Shown: piece by piece, positions 1,783-64,000 of the stretch
Layout of the letters: the number at the start of each line of letters is the position of its first letter
Numbering within the stretch: position 1 is the stretch's first letter
Translations under genes and position numbers: made by a program
Source of the DNA: a virus
Taxonomy: Duplodnaviria > Heunggongvirae > Uroviricota > Caudoviricetes
Reading direction: 5' to 3' (one strand)
Virus record (IMG/VR): IMGVR_UViG_3300017991_000084
Coordinates: 26,830 to 90,829 of that record
DNA length: 64,000 nt
Notes under the pieces: generated by a model
Databases searched by the model: none
What the model was told of the DNA's origin: nothing
The model's input: only the letters and a program-made list of their open reading frames with translations

Positions 1783-1872
1783 AGGAAGGCATGGGGATCG
1801 AACCCACAAGGCCCGTTAGGGCTCGCCTCCGTAGCAGGGAGGTGCCGTCGCCAACCTTCGGCTAGACCTTCC
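1783..1872 (-). tRNA. tRNA-Ser(GCT), type II with long variable arm
   Basis: Acceptor GGAAGGT/GCCTTCC; D stem GCCG/CGGC with long D loop; anticodon stem CCTCC/GGAGG; loop CTGCTAC; variable arm CGAGCCCTAACGGGCCTT; T arm GTGGG-TTCGATC-CCCAT. Confidence 0.7.
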
Positions 1873-2229
1873 GCTATGACACCACGACCAATGAGCAGCA
1901 ACCCTTGTCACTGTCCCAATGCCCACATCGTTCCTCAATGCACTTCTCTCTGTACGAATCAATGGGACCTAAAACACATCCATGTGCCTTGTCCCGCTCC
2001 AAACTCAACCGTGCCATATGTATGCATAGATCTTTCATCCTACTCCTCCCACTCAGGCCCACACTCACTGTAGAAGTCATGAAGCAGATCACCCTTCGTT
2101 GGGTATGCGATGCTCTGCACATCCGGATCGTCCTCAGGACTCACGCGCCAACCTTGCTCATCTTCAAACAACGTGAACGGCTCGACGTCATCCAGCATGA
2201 TTCTTTCCACGTTCTTCATCTCTTCCTCC

Positions 2230-2559
2230 TCAATCAAACACGGAAAACAGGAACACACCCAACGATGAGAACTGATCCTGTCTCTCTTTAGCATGCATCT
2301 CAAGCATGAGATGAATATCAGTCACCCGAAGATGATCCATGTCCACTTGTTGAAGATCGATGCCCAGCTGATCTATCTTAACTAGGATTTGACCAATGCA
2401 GATTGTATCAGCTTCGAACGGATTACAACCTCGCAACATATGAATCTCACCCACATCCGGACAGTCTCCTGTATAGAGATCCTCTTCCAGTTGACACGTC
2501 CACTCCTTGTCCTCTTTCGTGTATGGCTTGTAAGCGCCGTACATGAGATAGATTGTCAT
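2230..2559 (-). CDS. hypothetical protein
   Basis: Minus ORF; leader AAAGGAGAAAGAGATG directly after the tRNA-Ser(TGA) 3' end. Confidence 0.4.
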   Translation of the reverse strand: MTIYLMYGAYKPYTKEDKEWTCQLEEDLYTGDCPDVGEIHMLRGCNPFEADTICIGQILVKIDQLGIDLQQVDMDHLRVTDIHLMLEMHAKERQDQFSSLGVFLFSVFD

Positions 2560-2575
2560 CTCTTTCTCCTTTCAA

Positions 2576-2667
2576 CGGAGGGTGAGGGGATCGAACCCAC
2601 AAGGCCCTTTAAGGGGCTCGCCGGTTTTCAAAACCGGAGCAGTCGCCAGCCTTCTGCTTGACCCTCC
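2576..2667 (-). tRNA. tRNA-Ser(TGA), type II
   Basis: Acceptor GGAGGGT/ACCCTCC with G73; anticodon stem CCGGT/ACCGG; loop TTTGAAA; variable arm CGAGCCCCTTAAAGGGCCTT; T loop TTCGATC; paralog of the tRNA at 1783-1872. Confidence 0.7.
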
Positions 2668-2767
2668 ATACTATTAAAACGCTCCCTTGCCAGTTATATC
2701 CCTGGCTGTTCTGGAACCCAGCAACCACGTCGCTGCGCCCTCACTGAATCCCACATCCCTCAAAGCC

Positions 2768-3109
2768 TTATACTGACTCCGGTACACGCTCTTCAGTATC
2801 GCATTCATCAATCTTCTCATTCTTCCACGCCTCCAAGAAAGCCTCTGCCTCTTCTTTCGTGCCCCAGTAGCCGGGAGCCCAATGCAACGCTTTGAGATCA
2901 TCCTCCAGTGTCACACCAAAACCAGGACTACAGTAGCCAGTGCTCCCATTGATAGTGCCATCCTTCCACAGGTAGACAGCTCGTTCGCCCCAGTTCGTAC
3001 AGATGTACCATCCGACAAGGTCCTTGGTGAAGCTACTCTTGTAGGAGCACACCCGGAAGCCCTTGCCAATCAAAGACAACATTCTCTTCTCGATCTCCAC
3101 CCAGCTCAT
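2768..3109 (-). CDS. hypothetical protein
   Basis: Minus ORF, 113 aa. Confidence 0.35.
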   Translation of the reverse strand: MSWVEIEKRMLSLIGKGFRVCSYKSSFTKDLVGWYICTNWGERAVYLWKDGTINGSTGYCSPGFGVTLEDDLKALHWAPGYWGTKEEAEAFLEAWKNEKIDECDTEERVPESV

Positions 3110-3276
3110 ATCACCTCTCCGAAATGGCCATCAGTTTGTAGTCGCTCGCCCATCGTATGGGAGGCGGCTCAACGTGAACCTCAAACCGCCTGGCGCTCTT
3201 ACAGTAGTACACATACGCCAGCCGCCCAGTTTTGTTCAGGAAATCTTGGGCACGATGGCACGCATTGACGAATCGC

Positions 3277-4020
3277 TTATCCATCGTCTTCCTCGTTTTC
3301 TTCCAGATCAGAGAGGAACGTTTCCTCATCCGGAAGGTCATCCAAACTGTACGTCTTGATCAAACCCACAGGCTTGTAGCCATCCTCGTTAGCCTCATTA
3401 CCAAACCGCCCAGGCTCGCCCCTGTTGAAGCCCTCGTAGACTTCCAGCACATTCTTGTCCAGATCCAGGACATAGGCGAACTCGCAGAACAGGCCGTCTT
3501 TGGCGAATTCCTGACTGTTTTGCACCAGGATCTTACCGCCCATCGCATCGAAGGCGCTCGGCAGATCGTCCTCACCATCCAGCTTCGACGGAGGAGTATA
3601 CCAGCTCTTCTCCTCGTCCTTCTCCACAGCACAGTTCAACGTGTCTGGGAACCCCTGGATGAACTCCAGAATGTCACCGCCCATATCCCGATTCAACTGA
3701 GGGAACCGTCGCCGGAATCGATTCGACACGTCCAGATCCACCAGCTCATCATCACGGTCGTCACCAGCTTCCCGATAGAACTGCATCAGTTGCTTCTCAG
3801 TGATCCCTTCCACCAGCTCCAACTGCTCCAGGAACTTGGCCCGATCAAACCTCTCACGCAGGAAATTCAGGATCTCCACACCCTGGCCGCTGGGATACCC
3901 ATCCCACTGGCAATACTGTGCCACGACACATTCGTCGTTCAGAACCACACATGTCAAATTTCTCGTGCCCATCACATTCTCCCTACACTCGATGCTGGTT
4001 GTGATGACTTCCCTGTGCAT
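3277..4020 (-). CDS. hypothetical acidic protein
   Basis: 247-aa minus ORF with an acidic C-terminus. Confidence 0.45.
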   Translation of the reverse strand: MHREVITTSIECRENVMGTRNLTCVVLNDECVVAQYCQWDGYPSGQGVEILNFLRERFDRAKFLEQLELVEGITEKQLMQFYREAGDDRDDELVDLDVSNRFRRRFPQLNRDMGGDILEFIQGFPDTLNCAVEKDEEKSWYTPPSKLDGEDDLPSAFDAMGGKILVQNSQEFAKDGLFCEFAYVLDLDKNVLEVYEGFNRGEPGRFGNEANEDGYKPVGLIKTYSLDDLPDEETFLSDLEENEEDDG

Positions 4021-45104: not shown

Positions 45105-46343
45105 CTATTGATCATCCTCTACGTCACCGATGCCCTTCTCACGCTGCTTGTCCTCCTTGAGTAGGAACTCGTCACTCTTGAGCTTCAGACATGACCAGCG
45201 CCCATATTCATCCTCGAACCAGACCACAATCCCCTCTCGGATCGTGTCCGCATCCAACACGGACTTGCCCTCGGTCAGCTGCTTCAAGTCATTCAATGAC
45301 CACGGCTCAGAATCGAATAGATCCACAATCCAATCATTGATGAAATGACCCTCACCCAACAACGGAGGACACTCCAAGCCCAACTCCACGGCACGATGGT
45401 ATACCATCTCACGTGGCAGATCCACGCAGAAGCCGTCTGGTGTGGTGATGGTGACACGATACAAGATCACTCGATACTCACTCGCCTTGCATCCATATGA
45501 GAACCCAGACTGAATCTCAGCCCCAGTCTTTGAATGCCCGAAGATCTCATAGTACACCTGCTCACCCTTCCGCAGATGTGGAGCCAACTTCTCCTCGATC
45601 TCCTTACGCACACCAGGAATGTGAGCACCAATGTGGTCCACACGACGTGTCCCACTAACCACACGCCACTCCTCTGTCACCTTGGGAGCCCAGAACTTCC
45701 ACCACGGACGCTGTGTCTTGAACAGCATGTTACCCGTCCGAGCTGAAGTCCCATGGATCTTCTCCTCAATGTACAGAGTCCCATTTGGAATCCGATGTGA
45801 CTCACGGAGCAGGTGCTTCGTGTCCCAGTGCTTCCAGAACATCTCTGACACCGGCTCCCGAACTCTCTTCTTCCGAGACCCAGGCGCACCAGGAGTACGA
45901 TGAGGCACCACGTACTTCTCACAGATCTTCACACCATTCACATGGGTAAACTCGTCACCTACCTCCAGGTACTCCGCAACCCCAGTGTTGTTGATAGACT
46001 CCACCAGTGTGTGAATAGAGGCAACTGAAGCCACATACCCATTCGACATCTCACCACGGAATCTCTGCGCCCGAACGCGACCATTCTTACCGAAGTAGCC
46101 CTTCACGCTCGTATCCGCATTCAATTCCGGATTCGAATACAAGTTGTTATGGCTCAGGTACTCCGGAGACAACCGTAGATTGCTGTCGAAGTACACCATC
46201 AAGTCACCGTCTTTCGCATCCAGACCGACAACCACCTGATCACCCACCACAGTAGCCAGCTTCAACCGATCTGCATTCGGATGCGGACGGACATTCTCTA
46301 GCCGCACGACCAACGCATTGTTAGATTCCGCTTTCTTCAACAT
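45105..46343 (-). CDS. RNA ligase, Rnl2-type nucleotidyltransferase, with an N-terminal tRNA-binding (Trbp111/EMAPII/Myf-like, PF01588) OB domain
   Basis: N-terminus VVRLENVRPHPNADRLKLATVVGDQ...RAQRFRGEMSNGYV (tRNA_bind signatures); motif I EEKIHGTSAR (T4 Rnl2 has EKIHGTN); motif III-like YYEIFG; motif IV EGIVVWFED; motif V LKLKSDEF. Confidence 0.6.
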   Translation of the reverse strand: MLKKAESNNALVVRLENVRPHPNADRLKLATVVGDQVVVGLDAKDGDLMVYFDSNLRLSPEYLSHNNLYSNPELNADTSVKGYFGKNGRVRAQRFRGEMSNGYVASVASIHTLVESINNTGVAEYLEVGDEFTHVNGVKICEKYVVPHRTPGAPGSRKKRVREPVSEMFWKHWDTKHLLRESHRIPNGTLYIEEKIHGTSARTGNMLFKTQRPWWKFWAPKVTEEWRVVSGTRRVDHIGAHIPGVRKEIEEKLAPHLRKGEQVYYEIFGHSKTGAEIQSGFSYGCKASEYRVILYRVTITTPDGFCVDLPREMVYHRAVELGLECPPLLGEGHFINDWIVDLFDSEPWSLNDLKQLTEGKSVLDADTIREGIVVWFEDEYGRWSCLKLKSDEFLLKEDKQREKGIGDVEDDQ

Positions 46344-54728: not shown

Positions 54729-55931
54729 TCACCCCTTGAGTACTGCGACGGGCTCTAACTCCACAATCGCCTTCACAAGGTCCTTCTGGTTCTCCATGAC
54801 CACGTCAATAGGCTTGTACGCTCCAGGAGCCTCATCCAGGTCTCCCCGGTTCCGAACTCCATGCACAATGCCCTTCAGCTTGGTGATCTCCTCACCCAAG
54901 TCCAGCTTCTCCTTCGCTGCTGATCGAGACATCAACCGCCCAGCCCCATGGGAGCACGAACAGAAGCTCTCCGGATTCCCCAAACCTTCCACGATGTATG
55001 ACTTCGTCCCCATAGATCCAGGGATGATCCCGATCTCGCCCTTGTAAGCACGAGTCGCACCCTTACGGTGAACCAGGACGTTCTTCCCAAAATGGTGCTC
55101 CATAGCCGCATAGTTGTGGGCTATATTGATCGGTGCATCAAACTCGATGCCCTCGAAGTTCCCACGGAACGTGTCCATGATCGCATACATCATGTACATT
55201 CTGTTCTTCAGAGCAAAATCCACACACCACTTCATTTCACTCAGGTAGTTCTGGCCCTCATCAGAGTCCAGAGGCAAGAATGCCAGCTGCACGTTCGGAG
55301 GCACAGATGCCTTCCACTTCTCATTCAACTGCTTCGCCAGATCGTTGTAGTACTTCGCCACCTTGTAGCCAACGTTCCGAGATCCTGAGTGAAGCATGAT
55401 CCAGATGTGACCATCGTCACCCTTCTGGATCTCGATGAAGTGGTTACCGCCACCCAACGTCCCCAGCTGGAACCGCGCTGCCTCATGCTGCTCAGCCACA
55501 ATAGACTTCGCCGTTCCGCTAGTCAACTTACCCCAAAGCGGAGGCATGTCCAGCATATCTACCTGGAAGCTGTGATGGTTCCGGCCCATCGGGATACGCT
55601 GTCGGATCTCAGCCAGGATAGGTCTCCACAGGTTCTGAGAAAACGATGCACCAAGATTCCAGTCTTTCGCCAAGAGAGAAGTCTTGACCGCACACATGCC
55701 ACAGCCAATGTCCACACCAACGGCATTCGGGATAACCACACCCAAAGTCGCCATGACACCACCAATGGGCATACCGTACCCACAGTGACAATCAGGCATA
55801 GCTGCAATCCACTTGTACGCGAATGGTAGCTGCGCCAGGTTGTACAACTGCAACATAGCCTGAGGCTCAATGTCCTCGGACCACATCTTGATTGGCAACA
55901 TGTTCTTGTGTGCTTCAACTCTCATGGTCAT
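54729..55931 (-). CDS. rtcB: RtcB RNA 3'-phosphate / 2',3'-cyclic phosphate ligase
   Basis: MPDCHCGYG, GGGNHF, AHNY, HGAGR motifs. Confidence 0.8.
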   Translation of the reverse strand: MTMRVEAHKNMLPIKMWSEDIEPQAMLQLYNLAQLPFAYKWIAAMPDCHCGYGMPIGGVMATLGVVIPNAVGVDIGCGMCAVKTSLLAKDWNLGASFSQNLWRPILAEIRQRIPMGRNHHSFQVDMLDMPPLWGKLTSGTAKSIVAEQHEAARFQLGTLGGGNHFIEIQKGDDGHIWIMLHSGSRNVGYKVAKYYNDLAKQLNEKWKASVPPNVQLAFLPLDSDEGQNYLSEMKWCVDFALKNRMYMMYAIMDTFRGNFEGIEFDAPINIAHNYAAMEHHFGKNVLVHRKGATRAYKGEIGIIPGSMGTKSYIVEGLGNPESFCSCSHGAGRLMSRSAAKEKLDLGEEITKLKGIVHGVRNRGDLDEAPGAYKPIDVVMENQKDLVKAIVELEPVAVLKG

Positions 55932-59590: not shown

Positions 59591-59663
59591 CGGGACCGGA
59601 AGGATTCGAACCTTCAACTTACGGCTTAGAAGGCCGGTACTCTATCCGTTGAGTTACGATCCC
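59591..59663 (-). tRNA. tRNA-Arg(TCT)
   Basis: Acceptor GGGATCG/CGGTCCC; anticodon loop CTTCTAA; T arm GAAGG-TTCGAAT-CCTTC. Confidence 0.65.
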
Positions 59664-59809
59664 TATTTCAATAGTCCATATCCATCAGGCACCCAAAATG
59701 GACTTGGACCTCTTTGGTCTTGCATGGCTTACCACCAGGAGTCTCACACCCGACCTTGATAGTCTCGTTGGGCTCCTTCCCACCACACAACCAACAGACC
59801 TCTTTCTTC

Positions 59810-60610
59810 TTACTCATAGTCCCGAACCTCCACACCAATTGGAAATCTCGGAATCCCTTCATCAGTCAGTTCCTGGTACTTCACTGTGAGCATCTTGCCA
59901 TAGTAAGACACACGATTCTTCCACGCTTCTCTGCGCCACTCGTAAGTTCCCATCGGACGGGCCTTGAACGTTCTCTCATCCGTAGCCGACACACGGCACA
60001 CCCAGATCGGTGTTCCTATGTCTTTGCCCTTGCCCTCAATCGCACCCACGATCTGATACTCCGCATCATGGAACTTCTTCAGCTTGAGCAAGTCACGACC
60101 ACTGCGCCCATGCTTGTAGATACCATTTGGGTTCCGATAGATCAGGCCCTCGTATCCTTGGTCGATCCACTCATCTAATTGATTCCACACCTCTTCCACC
60201 AAATACAGCTTGGGAGTGACCACCCAATAATCTCTCACCACCTCTCTCACAATTTGTATCCTCTTGTGGAACGGGAGATCCGGAAGGTCCTTCATCCAAC
60301 AGTCATACACGTGGTACTGCAACGTGGCAGAGATCTCATACTTCTTCTTGACCGCTGACACTGTTTCCTGAAATGTGGCATTCGGAAGCATCAACTCACC
60401 ATCCAGCACCAGCCCCCTAGGCCACTGCATTAGAGGATACCGCTCCTGAAGCATGCGTGTTATATGGGGCTTGTGTTCTTTCAGATTTCGTGTCCACGCC
60501 AGTGTCCCATCAAACAAGCACCGCACCCCATCCAGCTTCGGCTGAACATAACAGGGGAACGTAGCCTTCTTGTCTTCGAACTTGTTCGCCAACATCGGCT
60601 TATCCATCAA
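59810..60610 (-). CDS. ATP-dependent DNA ligase (compact, T7-like)
   Basis: Motif I QPKLDGVR; motif III LDGEL; motif IV EGLIYRNP; motif V LLKLKKF. Confidence 0.7.
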   Translation of the reverse strand: MMDKPMLANKFEDKKATFPCYVQPKLDGVRCLFDGTLAWTRNLKEHKPHITRMLQERYPLMQWPRGLVLDGELMLPNATFQETVSAVKKKYEISATLQYHVYDCWMKDLPDLPFHKRIQIVREVVRDYWVVTPKLYLVEEVWNQLDEWIDQGYEGLIYRNPNGIYKHGRSGRDLLKLKKFHDAEYQIVGAIEGKGKDIGTPIWVCRVSATDERTFKARPMGTYEWRREAWKNRVSYYGKMLTVKYQELTDEGIPRFPIGVEVRDYE

Positions 60611-60940
60611 TTGCTCTCCTCAAAAGTGAACTTCGCTCCACACACTCTACACTGACGTGTGTCCGTCCATGTCTCCTGCCCATTTGGATGATAGTGTATC
60701 TCTGTGGAATGAAGGATGGGCAGGTTCCCATCAGGGTCATCCATGTCCTCATACTCATTGTATCCCACACCGCAATCACAATGGAAGTCTGGGAAACTCC
60801 AGTCTCCAGTCTTCGCCATCTCTAGATCAATCTGTGTGCGCACGCTTACGGAGAAAGTAAAGCATGTCACTTCACCCTCATCGATACATCGTTGCAAGAA
60901 CTCAATCCGGTCTTTGTCTGTAATCATCTGCTTCTCCTAA

Positions 60941-61012
60941 CGAGCCTGCCAGAATTCGAATCTGGGCTTGGAGGATCAAAGCCTCCGGTGCTGACCACTA
61001 CACTACAGGCCC
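60941..61012 (-). tRNA. tRNA-Gln(TTG)
   Basis: Anticodon stem GGAGG/CCTCC; loop CTTTGAT; T loop TTCGAAT. Confidence 0.6.
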
Positions 61013-61014
61013 AA

Positions 61015-61086
61015 TAGACCTGCTACGATTCGAACGTAGATCTTGGGAGTCAGAGTCCCAGGTGCTAACCATTACACCACAGGTCT
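61015..61086 (-). tRNA. tRNA-Gln(CTG)
   Basis: Anticodon stem TGGGA/TCCCA; loop CTCTGAC; T arm CTACG-TTCGAAT-CGTAG. Confidence 0.6.
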
Positions 61087-61366
61087 AATTACATGCCCGG
61101 CCAATCACGATACCATGGGCAATCATTATTTGGATTCAACTCACTCGGATGCTTGATCGGAATCTTATCACATTCCGCATACGATCTGGCCAACTCCACA
61201 TTGTTGGAATGGTAACATGCTTTGTCCGATCCAAACTTACACCCGTTACAGTATCTCTTTCCCTTCGGTTGCCAGCCCGTAATAGCCTTTGCCACCCTCA
61301 ACACCACCACAGTGGCCACCAAAACAACTGGGATTATCAGTATATCAGACATAATGCTCCTTTCAA

Positions 61367-61440
61367 AGCCGGTGGAGGGATTCGAACCCACAACCCCTCG
61401 CTTACAAGGCGAGCGCTCTTGTCCATTGAGCTACACCGGC
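61367..61440 (-). tRNA. tRNA-Thr(TGT)
   Basis: Acceptor GCCGGTG/CACCGGC; loop CTTGTAA. Confidence 0.65.
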
Positions 61441-61444
61441 ACAG

Positions 61445-61518
61445 TGGGAGTAGCAGGACTCGAACCTGCGACTTACCGGGTAAAAGCCGGTTGCTCTATC
61501 CAACTGAGCTACACTCCC
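61445..61518 (-). tRNA. tRNA-Lys(TTT)
   Basis: D arm TAGCTCAGTTGGATAGAGC; anticodon stem ACCGG/CCGGT; loop CTTTTAC. Confidence 0.65.
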
Positions 61519-62158
61519 AGGTGCTCACCATTACACCACAACTGATCATCCATAGCCTGATCAATCGCCGTTCGCACATCATTCACCGCACCTTCCATAC
61601 TCGTCTCATGAAGCCGAAAACCTCGGCCCGTCGTAGACCCACGGAGGATGCACTTTCCAGTATACTTTTTCTTCTCCAGCTGCTTTTGCAGCCAATCTAA
61701 TCGTTGTTTGTCTGTGAACATGTCACTCCTCACGCAAACATTGCCAGCCCTTCACCATAATCATCGGTGTGAACGCCACACCGAATCAAATCCTTCACTT
61801 GATCCTCAGTGATCAATGGGGCCAAATCTTCCAGAGACACATCCAAGAAGATCTGATCGTGCTCAGCCGCACTCACCATGTCCGTTGTTCCCTCTCCACC
61901 CAAGATATCATGCAGCATCAAGAACGCACAGATATCCGGTCTCGGATGACGAGGATTCTCGATATCCTCGAACTTGAGGTATATACTGTCATCAGCATCA
62001 AACAGTTCGCACATTTCTTCCACGGTCATGTCATTCCTCCTCAATAGGACGACGGCAACGTTTTTTGTTCTCCTCCTTCTTCCGATCCTTATGGACTCGT
62101 GAAGGTGGAGGCATCTTGCCTCTTGGCAATCTCGGTTTTCTCTTTGGCTTCTTCATAA

Positions 62159-62229
62159 GGTGTTCGACGGGATTCGAACCCGCCCCCTCAGCGTCACAGG
62201 CTAATATGCTACCACTACACCACGAACAC
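62159..62229 (-). tRNA. tRNA with anticodon GTG (His-like), no encoded G-1, shifted D stem
   Basis: Acceptor GTGTTCG/CGAACAC with C73; anticodon stem TTAGC/GCTGA; loop CTGTGAC; T arm GCGGG-TTCGAAT-CCCGT. Confidence 0.45.
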
Positions 62230-62231
62230 AA

Positions 62232-62305
62232 CTCCCCCGGAAGGACTCGAACCTTCGCATACTCGGATTAACAGTCCGAAGCTCTACCAACTGAGCTACA
62301 GGGGA
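62232..62305 (-). tRNA. tRNA-Asn(GTT)
   Basis: D arm TAGCTCAGTTGGTAGAGC; anticodon stem TCGGA/TCCGA; loop CTGTTAA. Confidence 0.65.
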
Positions 62306-62309
62306 CTCA

Positions 62310-62382
62310 AGACCAAGGTGGGATTCGAACCCACATAAGCCGGGTTGCAACCGGCTACCTAAGGCCATTCGGACACTTGGTC
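62310..62382 (-). tRNA. tRNA-Cys(GCA)
   Basis: Acceptor GACCAAG/CTTGGTC with U73; anticodon stem GCCGG/CCGGC; loop TTGCAAC; weak D stem. Confidence 0.5.
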
Positions 62383-62590
62383 ATCGCTTACTAGTCCACT
62401 CTTGGAAGACTGCTTCAATTTGATCCCTTGTCATTGCATGTCCATACTCAAGGACCAACAACTCCACAGCTCCAGGAAACATCACATCCACACTGTGGAC
62501 GTCACCAAAGTCAACTTCATTTGAACCGTACCAGTAATCTAAATCACTTTCCATTGCCCTTTGAAGCTCACTCATATCAATCTCCCCTCA

Positions 62591-62664
62591 TTGCACCGGA
62601 GTGGATTCGAACCACCACTGAACCGGGCTTAAACCGGATGCCTCTGCCGTTGGGCTACCGGCGC
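62591..62664 (-). tRNA. type-I (short variable arm) tRNA with anticodon TAA (a Leu UUA/UUG anticodon), A73
   Basis: Acceptor GCGCCGG/CCGGTGC; D arm TAGCCCAACGGCAGAGGC; anticodon stem CCGG/CCGG; loop TTTAAGC; variable TCAGT; T arm GGTGG-TTCGAAT-CCACT. Confidence 0.45.
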
Positions 62665-62746
62665 TTAATCAGATCACCAAAAAACCAACCAAAAAGAAAG
62701 CAACAACACAAAGCTATAATCTGCCCCATATCAATTCTCCTTTCAA

Positions 62747-62833
62747 TGCCAGCTGAGGGTATCGAACCCACTCGGCCTCTTTACGAGGATCAGGGTTACA
62801 GCCTGAGCCGCCTCCTTAGCAGTCTACGCTGGC
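62747..62833 (-). tRNA. tRNA-Tyr(GTA), type II
   Basis: Anticodon stem TCAGG/CCTGA; loop CTGTAAC; long variable arm TCCTCGTAAAGAGGCCGA; T loop TTCGATA; one acceptor mismatch. Confidence 0.5.
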
Positions 62834-62996
62834 GTTTGCTTCTGGACTTGGCTTGCCACACCTTAGAGTACTCTCCAGTGTGACCTGCTATGTGCTCTGT
62901 CCTAGGGCTTCACTACCGCTACCCATTCGCAACCGTAAGCTCGTCAGCTTTCGTGGACTGCCAGAATTCACCACTTCAAACGGTTTCCAGAAGCAA

Positions 62997-63070
62997 TGAC
63001 CCCAGTGGGAGTCGAACCCACACTAGACTGGTTCTAAGCCAGCCGCCTCTGCCAATTGGGCTACAGGGCC
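62997..63070 (-). tRNA. type-I tRNA with anticodon TAG (a Leu CUA anticodon), A73; paralog of the tRNA at 62591-62664
   Basis: D arm TAGCCCAATTGGCAGAGGC; anticodon stem GCTGG/CCAGT; loop CTTAGAA; variable CTAG; T arm GTGGG-TTCGACT-CCCAC. Confidence 0.45.
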
Positions 63071-63075
63071 TTCAA

Positions 63076-63148
63076 TGGGAATGGGAGGACTCGAACCTCC
63101 GACGCTTGGTACTTCACACCAACGCTCTTCCAACTGAGCTACATTCCC
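63076..63148 (-). tRNA. tRNA-Phe(GAA)
   Basis: Acceptor GGGAATG/CATTCCC; anticodon stem TTGGT/ACCAA; loop GTGAAGT; T arm GGAGG-TTCGAGT-CCTCC. Confidence 0.65.
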
Positions 63149-63153
63149 CTAAT

Positions 63154-63226
63154 GGACCGCGATGGGACTCGAACCCACAACCCCCTGCGTGCAAAGCAGG
63201 TGCTCTCCCAATTGAGCTACGCGCCC
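63154..63226 (-). tRNA. tRNA-Ala(TGC)
   Basis: Anticodon stem CCTGC/GCAGG; loop TTTGCAC; G2-U71 wobble and a 3-70 mismatch in the acceptor. Confidence 0.55.
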
Positions 63227-63308
63227 ATATGTGACTAAGCTGTCTGGGGTTCATCCTTTCGGGTAGCATACCAGACGATTCTCATCCCTTTACGGTGCTC
63301 AATCACAA

Positions 63309-63381
63309 CAGGACTAGCAGGACTCGAACCCACAACGCGCGGTTCGTAGCCGCGCATGATATCCATTTTCACCATAGTCCT
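63309..63381 (-). tRNA. tRNA-Arg(ACG)
   Basis: Anticodon stem CGCGG/CCGCG; loop CTACGAA; T arm GTGGG-TTCGAGT-CCTGC; A1-U72. Confidence 0.55.
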
Positions 63382-63387
63382 ATTCAA

Positions 63388-63461
63388 TCACCGACCTTGG
63401 ACTCGAACCAAGAACCACCTGTGTGTAAGACAGGCACTCTACGCAATTGAGCTAGTCGGCG
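63388..63461 (-). tRNA. tRNA-Val(TAC)
   Basis: Anticodon stem CCTGT/ACAGG; loop CTTACAC; T arm CTTGG-TTCGAGT-CCAAG. Confidence 0.65.
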
Positions 63462-63464
63462 TAA

Positions 63465-63538
63465 TCACGCTGGGGAGACTCGAACTCCCAACCTTCGGAT
63501 CGACAATCCGGTGCTCTAACCAGTTGAGCTACAGCGCG
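63465..63538 (-). tRNA. tRNA-Asp(GTC)
   Basis: D arm TAGCTCAACTGGTTAGAGC; loop TTGTCGA; T arm GGGAG-TTCGAGT-CTCCC. Confidence 0.6.
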
Positions 63539-63765
63539 TCACTACATAGACAGTGACTCCCACCTAGTCTACACACTTACACTCATCGAGCCCCATCGAC
63601 GCCGATGGCTGCATGCATGGCTCTCCTGCAAGGGGTGGTTTTTCAGTGACGTCACCTGATCATCTCAGTCGCGTTGCGTCGCGCTGGAGGTTTGGCCCTT
63701 ACGTAAGCAGGCGACCTCCCCTGAGATTCTCAGACTCTTACTGCCTATGCTTATTCACTTTTCAT

Positions 63766-63837
63766 TAGCCCAGGAGAGGATCGAACTCTCGGCTGATGGC
63801 TGAGAACCATCAATGTTAGCCACTACACCACTGGGCC
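63766..63837 (-). tRNA. tRNA-Glu(CTC)
   Basis: Acceptor GGCCCAG/CTGGGCT; anticodon stem GATGG/CCATC; loop TTCTCAG; T arm GAGAG-TTCGATC-CTCTC. Confidence 0.6.
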
Positions 63838-63842
63838 GCTAA

Positions 63843-63925
63843 TGGCTTAGGAGGGAATCGAACCCTCACGCCCGAAGGCACTGGTGTTTGAAACCAGCGT
63901 GTCTGCCTAATTCCACCACCAAGCC
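63843..63925 (-). tRNA. tRNA-Leu(CAA), type II
   Basis: Acceptor GGCTTGG/CTAAGCC with A73; anticodon stem CTGGT/ACCAG; loop TTCAAAC; long variable arm TGCCTTCGGGCGT. Confidence 0.65.
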
Positions 63926-63928
63926 GAA

Positions 63929-64000
63929 TAGCCCAGGAGAGGATCGAACTCTCGTCTCAGGATCGAAAGTCCTGAATGATAACCACTACACCACTGGGCC
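63929..64000 (-). tRNA. tRNA-Arg(TCG); shares acceptor and T arms with the tRNA-Glu at 63766-63837
   Basis: Anticodon stem CAGGA/TCCTG; loop CTTTCGA; same acceptor (GGCCCAG) and T arm as the Glu tRNA; ends at the window edge. Confidence 0.55.

Follow-up and report, generated by a model that had tools for sequence, protein, structure and literature searches.

The locus examined here raises a question of tRNA identity: are two phage-borne tRNA genes that combine the Leu anticodons UAA and UAG with short variable arms structurally reduced leucine tRNAs, or are they tRNAs whose identity has been retargeted? The two genes (called tRNA A and tRNA B, respectively) lie in the window, the whole stretch of 64,000 nucleotides that was analyzed, which has a G+C content of 51.6% and contains 21 tRNA genes as called by ARAGORN, 19 of them in one minus-strand cluster (Table 1). 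tRNA A and tRNA B are very probably functional type I leucine tRNAs, members of a large and old family that supplies Actinomycetota with their ordinary chromosomal tRNALeu(UAA/CAA/UAG) and that has spread widely among the tRNA clusters of phages and the tRNA arrays of bacteria.

Table 1. Features of the window discussed in the text, with positions counted from its first nucleotide.
Feature	Position	Strand	Remarks
tRNA A, type I tRNA-Leu(UAA)	62592..62664	minus	73 nt; ARAGORN and Rfam RF00005
tRNA B, type I tRNA-Leu(UAG)	62997..63070	minus	74 nt; ARAGORN and Rfam RF00005
Canonical type II tRNA-Leu(CAA)	63843..63925	minus	83 nt, long variable arm; ARAGORN and RF00005
tRNA gene cluster, including tRNA A and tRNA B	59591..64000	minus	19 tRNA genes; the end of the window cuts the cluster
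tRNA-His(GUG)	62159-62229	minus	C73
ORF of 64 aa	62381-62575	minus	fills the space between tRNA-Cys and tRNA A
Gap inside the cluster	62834-62996		163 nt; holds no tRNA
tRNA-Ala(UGC)	63153-63226	minus	irregular acceptor stem
Gap inside the cluster	63539-63765		227 nt; holds no tRNA
Two tRNA-Ser genes	1783-2668		
PHA02142 protein with RNA-ligase OB fold	45105-46343	minus	
RtcB tRNA-splicing/repair ligase	54729-55931	minus	E = 1e-114

Both genes encode intact type I cloverleaves with Leu anticodons, as the original prediction had it, although they are read from the minus strand and tRNA A begins at 62592 rather than 62591. Neither ARAGORN nor Rfam rejects them as tRNAs: full-length matches to RF00005 score 49.5 bits (tRNA A) and 54.1 bits (tRNA B), the curated gathering score of 29 bits being the cut-off used for tRNA membership, and on this general model the two rank lowest in the cluster. 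Each has a 7-bp acceptor stem, U8, A9, a 5-bp anticodon stem with a standard 7-nt loop that includes U33, and a normal T arm. The acceptor stem of tRNA A is GCGCCGG/CCGGUGC, with G3·U70 and the discriminator A73, and its anticodon loop is UUUAAGC (G37), above which a U27·U43 mismatch interrupts the anticodon stem; the acceptor stem of tRNA B is GGCCCUG/UGGGGUC (G2·U71, C3-G70, U6·G67, and G7·U66, with A73), and its anticodon loop is CUUAGAA (A37). The variable loop (UCAGU in tRNA A, CUAGU in tRNA B) is short, as expected from the predicted range of 4–5 nt, and measures 5 nt in both, ending in U48. Full cloverleaves within a run of 19 tRNA genes exclude the possibility that tRNA A and tRNA B are chance matches.

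The common D arm and the common A73 reported for the pair were borne out by an exact motif match, UAGCCCAA(C or UU)GGCAGAGGC, and by an A73 in each gene. The D stem has 3 bp (G10-C25, C11-G24, and C12-G23), with C13 opposite A22, and the D loop reads A14 A15 (C or UU) G18 G19 C A G, where the partner of A15 is U48. The canonical type II tRNA-Leu(CAA), found where it had been predicted and matching RF00005 with 52.1 bits, has a D loop (GAAUUAGGCAGA) laid out as in tRNA A and tRNA B. CCA is encoded by 0 of the 20 tRNA genes inspected (18 in the cluster and the two Ser genes), and the 3′ trailers of most of these begin with UUG, UUA, or UUC. Since CCA is not encoded, maturation would need a 3′ endonuclease and a CCA-adding enzyme, which, judged from the gene ends, implies RNase Z-type 3′ processing and CCA addition in the host.

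Several other features of the cluster were recorded. Rfam at a permissive threshold gave no match in its non-tRNA gaps. tRNA-His(GUG) has U at position −1, hence no G−1 is encoded. tRNA-Ala(UGC) is drawn by ARAGORN with G2·U71, a G3·G70 mismatch, and C73; in its minimum-free-energy fold, one G is bulged in the 3′ strand and the acceptor becomes G1-C72, G2-C71, G3·U70, C4-G69, and A73, the canonical Ala set, so that the gene is either a real bulged tRNA-Ala or the product of a one-base insertion error in the assembly.

To survey the distribution of the D arm, IMG/VR and a set of GTDB genomes, one for each species, were scanned for exact matches to TAGCCCAA(N1-2)GGCAGAGGC, which yielded at least 120 loci in IMG/VR and at least 120 in GTDB genomes. 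Among the matches listed, ARAGORN assigned Leu anticodons to 116 of 118 motif-bearing tRNAs in IMG/VR (UAA 63, UAG 27, CAA 21, GAG 2, CAG 2, AAG 1) and to 116 of 116 in GTDB (UAA 70, CAA 20, UAG 15, CAG 8, GAG 3); for the two databases together, again among the matches listed, the figure is 232 of 234, with all six kinds of Leu anticodon represented. The motif-bearing tRNAs among the matches listed are all 73–79 nt long by ARAGORN (CCA included in some) and therefore type I. LeuRS does not read the anticodon; if this tRNA body specifies leucine for such an enzyme, it can be expected to occur, as it does here, with all six Leu anticodons, which belong to two codon boxes, and with hardly any other. 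Retrieval by the D-arm motif makes the conservation of the D arm within this family partly circular, but the association with Leu anticodons and the model scores given below are not circular. Among the matches listed, the discriminator is A73 in 229 of 230 family members, and the commonest variable loops are ACAGU, UCAGU, CAAGU, and CCAGU.

Most of the GTDB matches listed are lone chromosomal tRNA genes of Actinomycetota, the taxa among the matches listed including Mycobacterium, Nocardia, Gordonia, Corynebacterium, Arthrobacter, Rhodococcus, Amycolatopsis, Acidimicrobiales, and acI; a minority among the matches listed come from Planctomycetota or other phyla, or from tRNA arrays of 9–27 genes. 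To regard type II as the norm for the Leu isoacceptors of bacteria and phages is thus too broad, type I being routine in actinomycetotal chromosomes and common in phages. The first of the two readings offered for the pair, that of a structurally reduced (type I) leucine tRNA, is supported by family membership and by the association with Leu anticodons. The accompanying statement, which names A73 as the main basis of Leu identity, is incomplete, as the whole D arm and the tertiary core are conserved besides A73.

The survey also returned variants of the family that are recorded here in their own right. The only two motif-bearing tRNAs among the matches listed that lack a Leu anticodon, both from IMG/VR, are a Leu-type body with the Phe anticodon GAA and C33 (L112) and an aberrant 78-nt call with the Gly anticodon GCC (L066); these are possible mistranslators or pseudogenes. 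The acceptor stem is closed by G1·U72 in 66 of 115 viral vs. 17 of 115 chromosomal family members among the matches listed, and by G1-C72 in both tRNA A and tRNA B. Three loci (L130, from Virgisporangium; L133, from Streptomyces sp. NPDC060205; and L216) contain the acceptor strand and D arm from the 5′ portion of a type I tRNALeu, followed by unrelated sequence, and look like partial tRNA duplications left at the attachment sites of integrated elements. In another contig (L244, IMGVR_UViG_3300025312_000222, positions 2500-3290, minus strand), four Leu tRNAs stand in a row: type I tRNAs with anticodons UAG, UAA, and GAG, and a CAA tRNA with an intermediate variable region of ~13 nt; their D stems co-vary (GCC/GGC, UCC/GGA, UUC/GAA). 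The same contig encodes a tRNA of 72 nt that is type I and carries the Tyr anticodon GUA, whereas the tRNATyr of bacteria usually belongs to type II.

Since the D arm shared by tRNA A and tRNA B is a signature of the whole family, it is not evidence for a recent duplication. Over their whole length the two genes share 66% identity, and 58% when the D arm and anticodon are left out; tRNA B ranks 27th of 113 among the nearest relatives of tRNA A, and tRNA A ranks 68th of 113 among those of tRNA B. The closest relative of tRNA A is a tRNA in the IMG/VR contig L243, with 92% identity when the D arm and anticodon are disregarded, and this contig keeps the gene order of the window, Leu(UAA)-Cys-Asn-His. 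An exact search of IMG/VR with the anticodon arm of tRNA A found two contigs, one of which is the syntenic L243; the same search with the anticodon arm of tRNA B found no contig in IMG/VR, and no ortholog of tRNA B was obtained. Judged by these similarities, the pair is better viewed as two representatives of a single old family than as a recent duplication within the phage; they are paralogous, as first described, in belonging to that family, but each has many closer relatives elsewhere.

Family membership was also assessed with a covariance model (R1) built, with the cloverleaf imposed, from 50 distinct chromosomal type I tRNALeu genes at single-tRNA loci, source genes that share no ancestry with the phage contig of the window. 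In a search of the whole window, R1 gave 84.3 bits for tRNA B and 79.9 bits for tRNA A; the best of the 19 other tRNAs of the window was a tRNA-Thr at 58.5 bits, and the type II tRNA-Leu(CAA) scored 42.6 bits. The two tRNAs that are lowest on the generic model are therefore highest on R1, by more than 21 bits. Applied to 100 sources, R1 found 114 family members at E ≤ 1e-15, and its scores for tRNAs of two isolated phages were 79.3 bits (Escherichia phage mistaenkt) and 69.0 bits (Enterococcus phage EFGrNG). In an alignment of 111 distinct members (A2), 98.2% of cells are standard pairs vs. 65.0% in shuffles, 19 of 20 pairs show both-side (compensatory) changes, and the covariation score is 0.881 vs. 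0.205 when shuffled and ≤0.163 with slid partners; A2 was fitted to the model structure and its sequences are related, so these figures lean towards the structure, but the effect is still very large. Single-sequence folding gave thermodynamic z-scores of −1.08 and −0.60 for the pair, which are unremarkable, as is usual for tRNAs.

These results also bear on the idea that tRNA A and tRNA B are decaying or non-functional, whether as pseudogenes or as att-site or processing signals. Such a reading would accommodate the lowest general tRNA scores of the cluster, the U27·U43 mismatch in tRNA A, the three G·U acceptor pairs in tRNA B, and the unremarkable z-scores, but it is barely credible: the low RF00005 scores stem from a D arm peculiar to the family, and the same genes reach 80–84 bits on the family model; all invariant residues of the tRNA core are present in both; the compensatory covariation across the family reveals selection on the fold; and an ortholog of tRNA A is conserved in syntenic position in L243.

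The family is also present in isolated phages. BLAST of tRNA B against GenBank phages matched 167 records, among them phages of Mycobacterium (60), Erwinia (28), Streptomyces (18), Salmonella (11), Escherichia (10), Shigella (8), Citrobacter (6), Vibrio (6), and Gordonia (5). tRNA A matched phages of Streptomyces, Thermobifida, and Mycobacterium, as well as the Enterococcus phages PEf771 and TJE2 (93.5% identity over 61 nt) and EFGrNG (93.1% over 57 nt). Escherichia phage mistaenkt (Ounavirinae) encodes a type I tRNA-Leu(UAG) and a type I tRNA-Leu(CAA), with slightly variant D arms, and in Enterococcus phage EFGrNG a type I tRNA-Leu(UAA) adjoins a type II tRNA-Leu(UAG). The tRNA-Leu genes of isolated phages (of Mycobacterium, Streptomyces, and Gordonia, mistaenkt and other Ounavirinae, and Enterococcus Schiekvirus) thus belong to the same family and lie in tRNA clusters, often beside a type II tRNALeu, but their acceptor stems are unlike those of tRNA A and tRNA B. 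Because the family occurs in phages of such varied hosts, the architecture is not confined to actinobacterial phages and does not reveal which host the window phage infects. The EFGrNG locus (L242, positions 2013-2360) additionally contains a tmRNA predicted by ARAGORN, with the tag peptide AKNEELLAVA, which the record does not annotate.

In the comparison of the window with isolated phages, no close DNA relative was found, and its DNA polymerase shows only ~25% amino-acid identity; the relationship to isolated phages is a distant one. The proteins of the window phage include a T4-like portal, which traces to an ENA metagenome assembly (ERZ27256773), and a polymerase of family A that is fused with a UDG domain. 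An RtcB tRNA-splicing/repair ligase and a protein with a PHA02142 RNA-ligase OB fold are encoded a few kb from the tRNA cluster (Table 1); together, they suggest tRNA damage and repair during infection. These two proteins have a place in a further reading, in which the type I form is an adaptation that would let the tRNAs, still charged with leucine, escape a nuclease or toxin of host or phage, or a depletion mechanism, that strikes the type II tRNALeu of the host. The hosts of mistaenkt, of the Salmonella, Citrobacter, and Erwinia phages, and of EFGrNG are not known to have tRNALeu other than type II, and the presence of the family in these phages would suit such an adaptation, as would the encoding of RtcB and the RNA-ligase-like protein near the cluster. 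The type I form is, however, ordinary in actinomycetotal chromosomes, so that simple descent and horizontal transfer explain its presence, and the phage keeps a type II tRNALeu(CAA) as well; we regard the adaptive reading as improbable.

The second reading offered originally, retargeted identity, is not supported as a general account of the pair; all that remains of it is the combination of G3·U70 and A73 in tRNA A. G3·U70 is the principal determinant for AlaRS. Hou & Schimmel (1988) and McClain & Foss (1988) reportedly found that tRNAs of other identities accept Ala once G3·U70 is transplanted into them, and McClain et al. (1991) reportedly identified, in E. coli, A73, G2-C71, G4-C69, and G20 as supporting Ala determinants. 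G3·U70 with A73 is found in 0 of 230 other family members among the matches listed, and in the A2 alignment G·U at 3:70 occurs in 1 of 111 members, namely in tRNA A; its ortholog in L243 has A3-U70 instead. Among the matches listed from IMG/VR loci, as classified by a heuristic parse, G3·U70 is present in 22 of 22 Ala tRNAs vs. 8 of 801 non-Ala tRNAs, and only 2 of these 8, among the matches listed, also have A73. Wobble pairs at 2:71, 3:70, and 4:69 number 1, 0, and 2, respectively, of 230 family members among the matches listed.

In its specific form, retargeting would mean that AlaRS charges tRNA A wholly or partly, with UUA/UUG partly read as Ala, while tRNA B stays a leucine tRNA. What speaks for this is the solitary position of tRNA A within the family (among the matches listed), the near-restriction of G3·U70 to Ala tRNAs of the same phage loci (likewise among the matches listed), and the Ala acceptance that reportedly follows the transplanted pair. 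It is nonetheless quite unlikely. The A3-U70 of the syntenic ortholog places the G·U one transition away, neither conserved nor designed; tRNA A has A73 but otherwise lacks the supporting Ala determinants, with C2-G71, C4-G69, and C20 in their positions; it retains the complete LeuRS-type body, which should make LeuRS a strong competitor; wobbles are rare at 2:71 and 4:69 too, which means that the family data alone do not prove a specific avoidance of G·U at 3:70; and tRNA B has no G3·U70. The G3·U70 of tRNA A is probably a recent transition, possibly a slightly deleterious one, which could lead to some mischarging with Ala. A bolder proposal, still unlikely, is that tRNA A is a natural dual-identity tRNA (Leu and Ala) or, more broadly, that phage type I tRNALeu works in hosts that have type II tRNALeu only (E. 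coli, Enterococcus). If the former were true, some Ala would appear at UUA/UUG in phage and host proteins; if the latter were, bacterial LeuRS enzymes would accept armless tRNALeu far more generally than a single in vitro study suggests.

For leucine tRNAs of the type I family, as we take tRNA A and tRNA B to be, we infer leucylation, processing, and decoding range as follows. The two genes would be transcribed together with the rest of the minus-strand cluster, trimmed by host RNase P and a 3′ endonuclease, and completed by the host CCA-adding enzyme. Both are most probably leucylated by the LeuRS of the host, which would do so without reading the anticodon and would recognize U8:A14, A15:U48, the position of G18G19, the 3-bp D stem (C13/A22), the 5-nt variable loop, and A73. 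With U34, tRNA A would then read UUA/UUG and tRNA B would read CUA/CUG, possibly CUU; in combination with the type II CAA tRNA, they would give the phage a near-complete Leu decoding set of its own.

The need for such a set is less plain. Leu codons in the minus-strand ORFs are CTG (42%), TTG (33%), CTT (8%), CTA (7%), CTC (7%), and TTA (3%), so that the rarest Leu codons of the phage are matched exactly by tRNA A and tRNA B, and a demand for both tRNAs is not obvious. These frequencies leave codon compensation for the phage's own genes unsupported. As U34 tRNAs, both would in addition decode the abundant codons that end in G. The tRNAs of the cluster are mostly U34 species, and a compact, near-complete decoding set fits the cluster better than specific codon compensation does. 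A role as stop-codon suppressor or recoding tRNAs was also rejected: the anticodons 5′-UAA-3′ and 5′-UAG-3′ pair with UUA and CUA, not with stop codons.

For the window itself these results have little significance: the two genes are ordinary members of their family, to be annotated as tRNA-Leu. The wider point is that armless tRNALeu forms a large and strongly conserved family that extends beyond Streptomyces to actinomycetotal chromosomes, to tRNA arrays, and to phages whose hosts differ greatly; in the searchable literature it is covered by a biochemical study of just one member and by a remark made in passing. The question that follows is whether the LeuRS enzymes of Proteobacteria and Firmicutes can charge type I tRNALeu, given that E. 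coli phages carry the family despite the negative outcome of the only published E. coli test, made on the Streptomyces tRNA. The G3·U70 of tRNA A offers a natural test case for competition between Leu and Ala identity.

The biochemical precedent is Streptomyces coelicolor, which has one type I tRNALeu(CAA), with the variable loop A44 C45 A46 G47 C48, in addition to four type II isoacceptors (Fan, Huang, Ji & Wang 2019, NAR 47:6369; PMC6614811). Its single LeuRS leucylates tRNALeu of both types, charging of the type I tRNA requires U8:A14 and the 5-nt variable loop and is made possible by the leucine-specific domain of the enzyme, A73 is reported not to be the determinant, and attempts to delete the type I gene failed (PMC6614811). 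In vitro, this tRNA is charged by human mitochondrial LeuRS but not by E. coli LeuRS, and S. coelicolor LeuRS does not charge human mt-tRNALeu(UUR) (PMC6614811); the failure of the E. coli enzyme indicates that charging depends on the host. A short variable loop was also noted in passing for a tRNALeu(UAG) of a mycobacterial tRNA cluster, in a comparative genomics study of 2019 (PMC6582537). In the searchable literature, these two papers were all that was found; none that deals with the type I tRNALeu of phages as a group came up, nor any aminoacylation data on it, and a 2023 review of tRNA identity does not mention the Streptomyces case.

Set beside these and other known systems, tRNA A and tRNA B are of a known, under-described kind and not a new invention. 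They share with the S. coelicolor tRNA a 5-nt variable loop (ACAGC in the latter), U8:A14, G18G19, A73, and the presence of type II tRNALeu alongside, but differ in having A15:U48 where C48 of the S. coelicolor tRNA suggests G15, and in being phage-borne with UAA and UAG anticodons rather than chromosomal with CAA. The resemblance to animal mitochondrial type I tRNALeu is limited to the type I architecture and A73: the sequences are unrelated, the D and T loops are different, and so is the synthetase that serves as partner. Bacterial type II tRNALeu (of E. coli, and the CAA gene of the window) has in common with the pair A73, A14, A15:U48, the 3-bp D stem, the 13:22 mismatch, the length of the D loop, and the position of G18G19, but carries a stem-loop of at least 13 nt where tRNA A and tRNA B have 5 nt. 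In E. coli, Leu identity is reported to be defined by A73, A14, A15:U48, the D stem, and the D loop with G18G19, and the D arm of E. coli tRNALeu, GCG-GAAUUGGUAGA-CGC, has the same layout as that of the pair. The closest likeness is to the chromosomal type I tRNALeu(UAA/CAA/UAG) of Actinomycetota, which has the identical D-arm motif, a 5-nt variable loop (consensus NCAGU), A73, and the same cloverleaf; the chromosomal genes mostly have the acceptor GCCCCNG/CNGGGGC, with G1-C72, whereas tRNA A and tRNA B have other acceptor, anticodon, and T stems, and none of the chromosomal genes among the matches listed has the G3·U70 of tRNA A.
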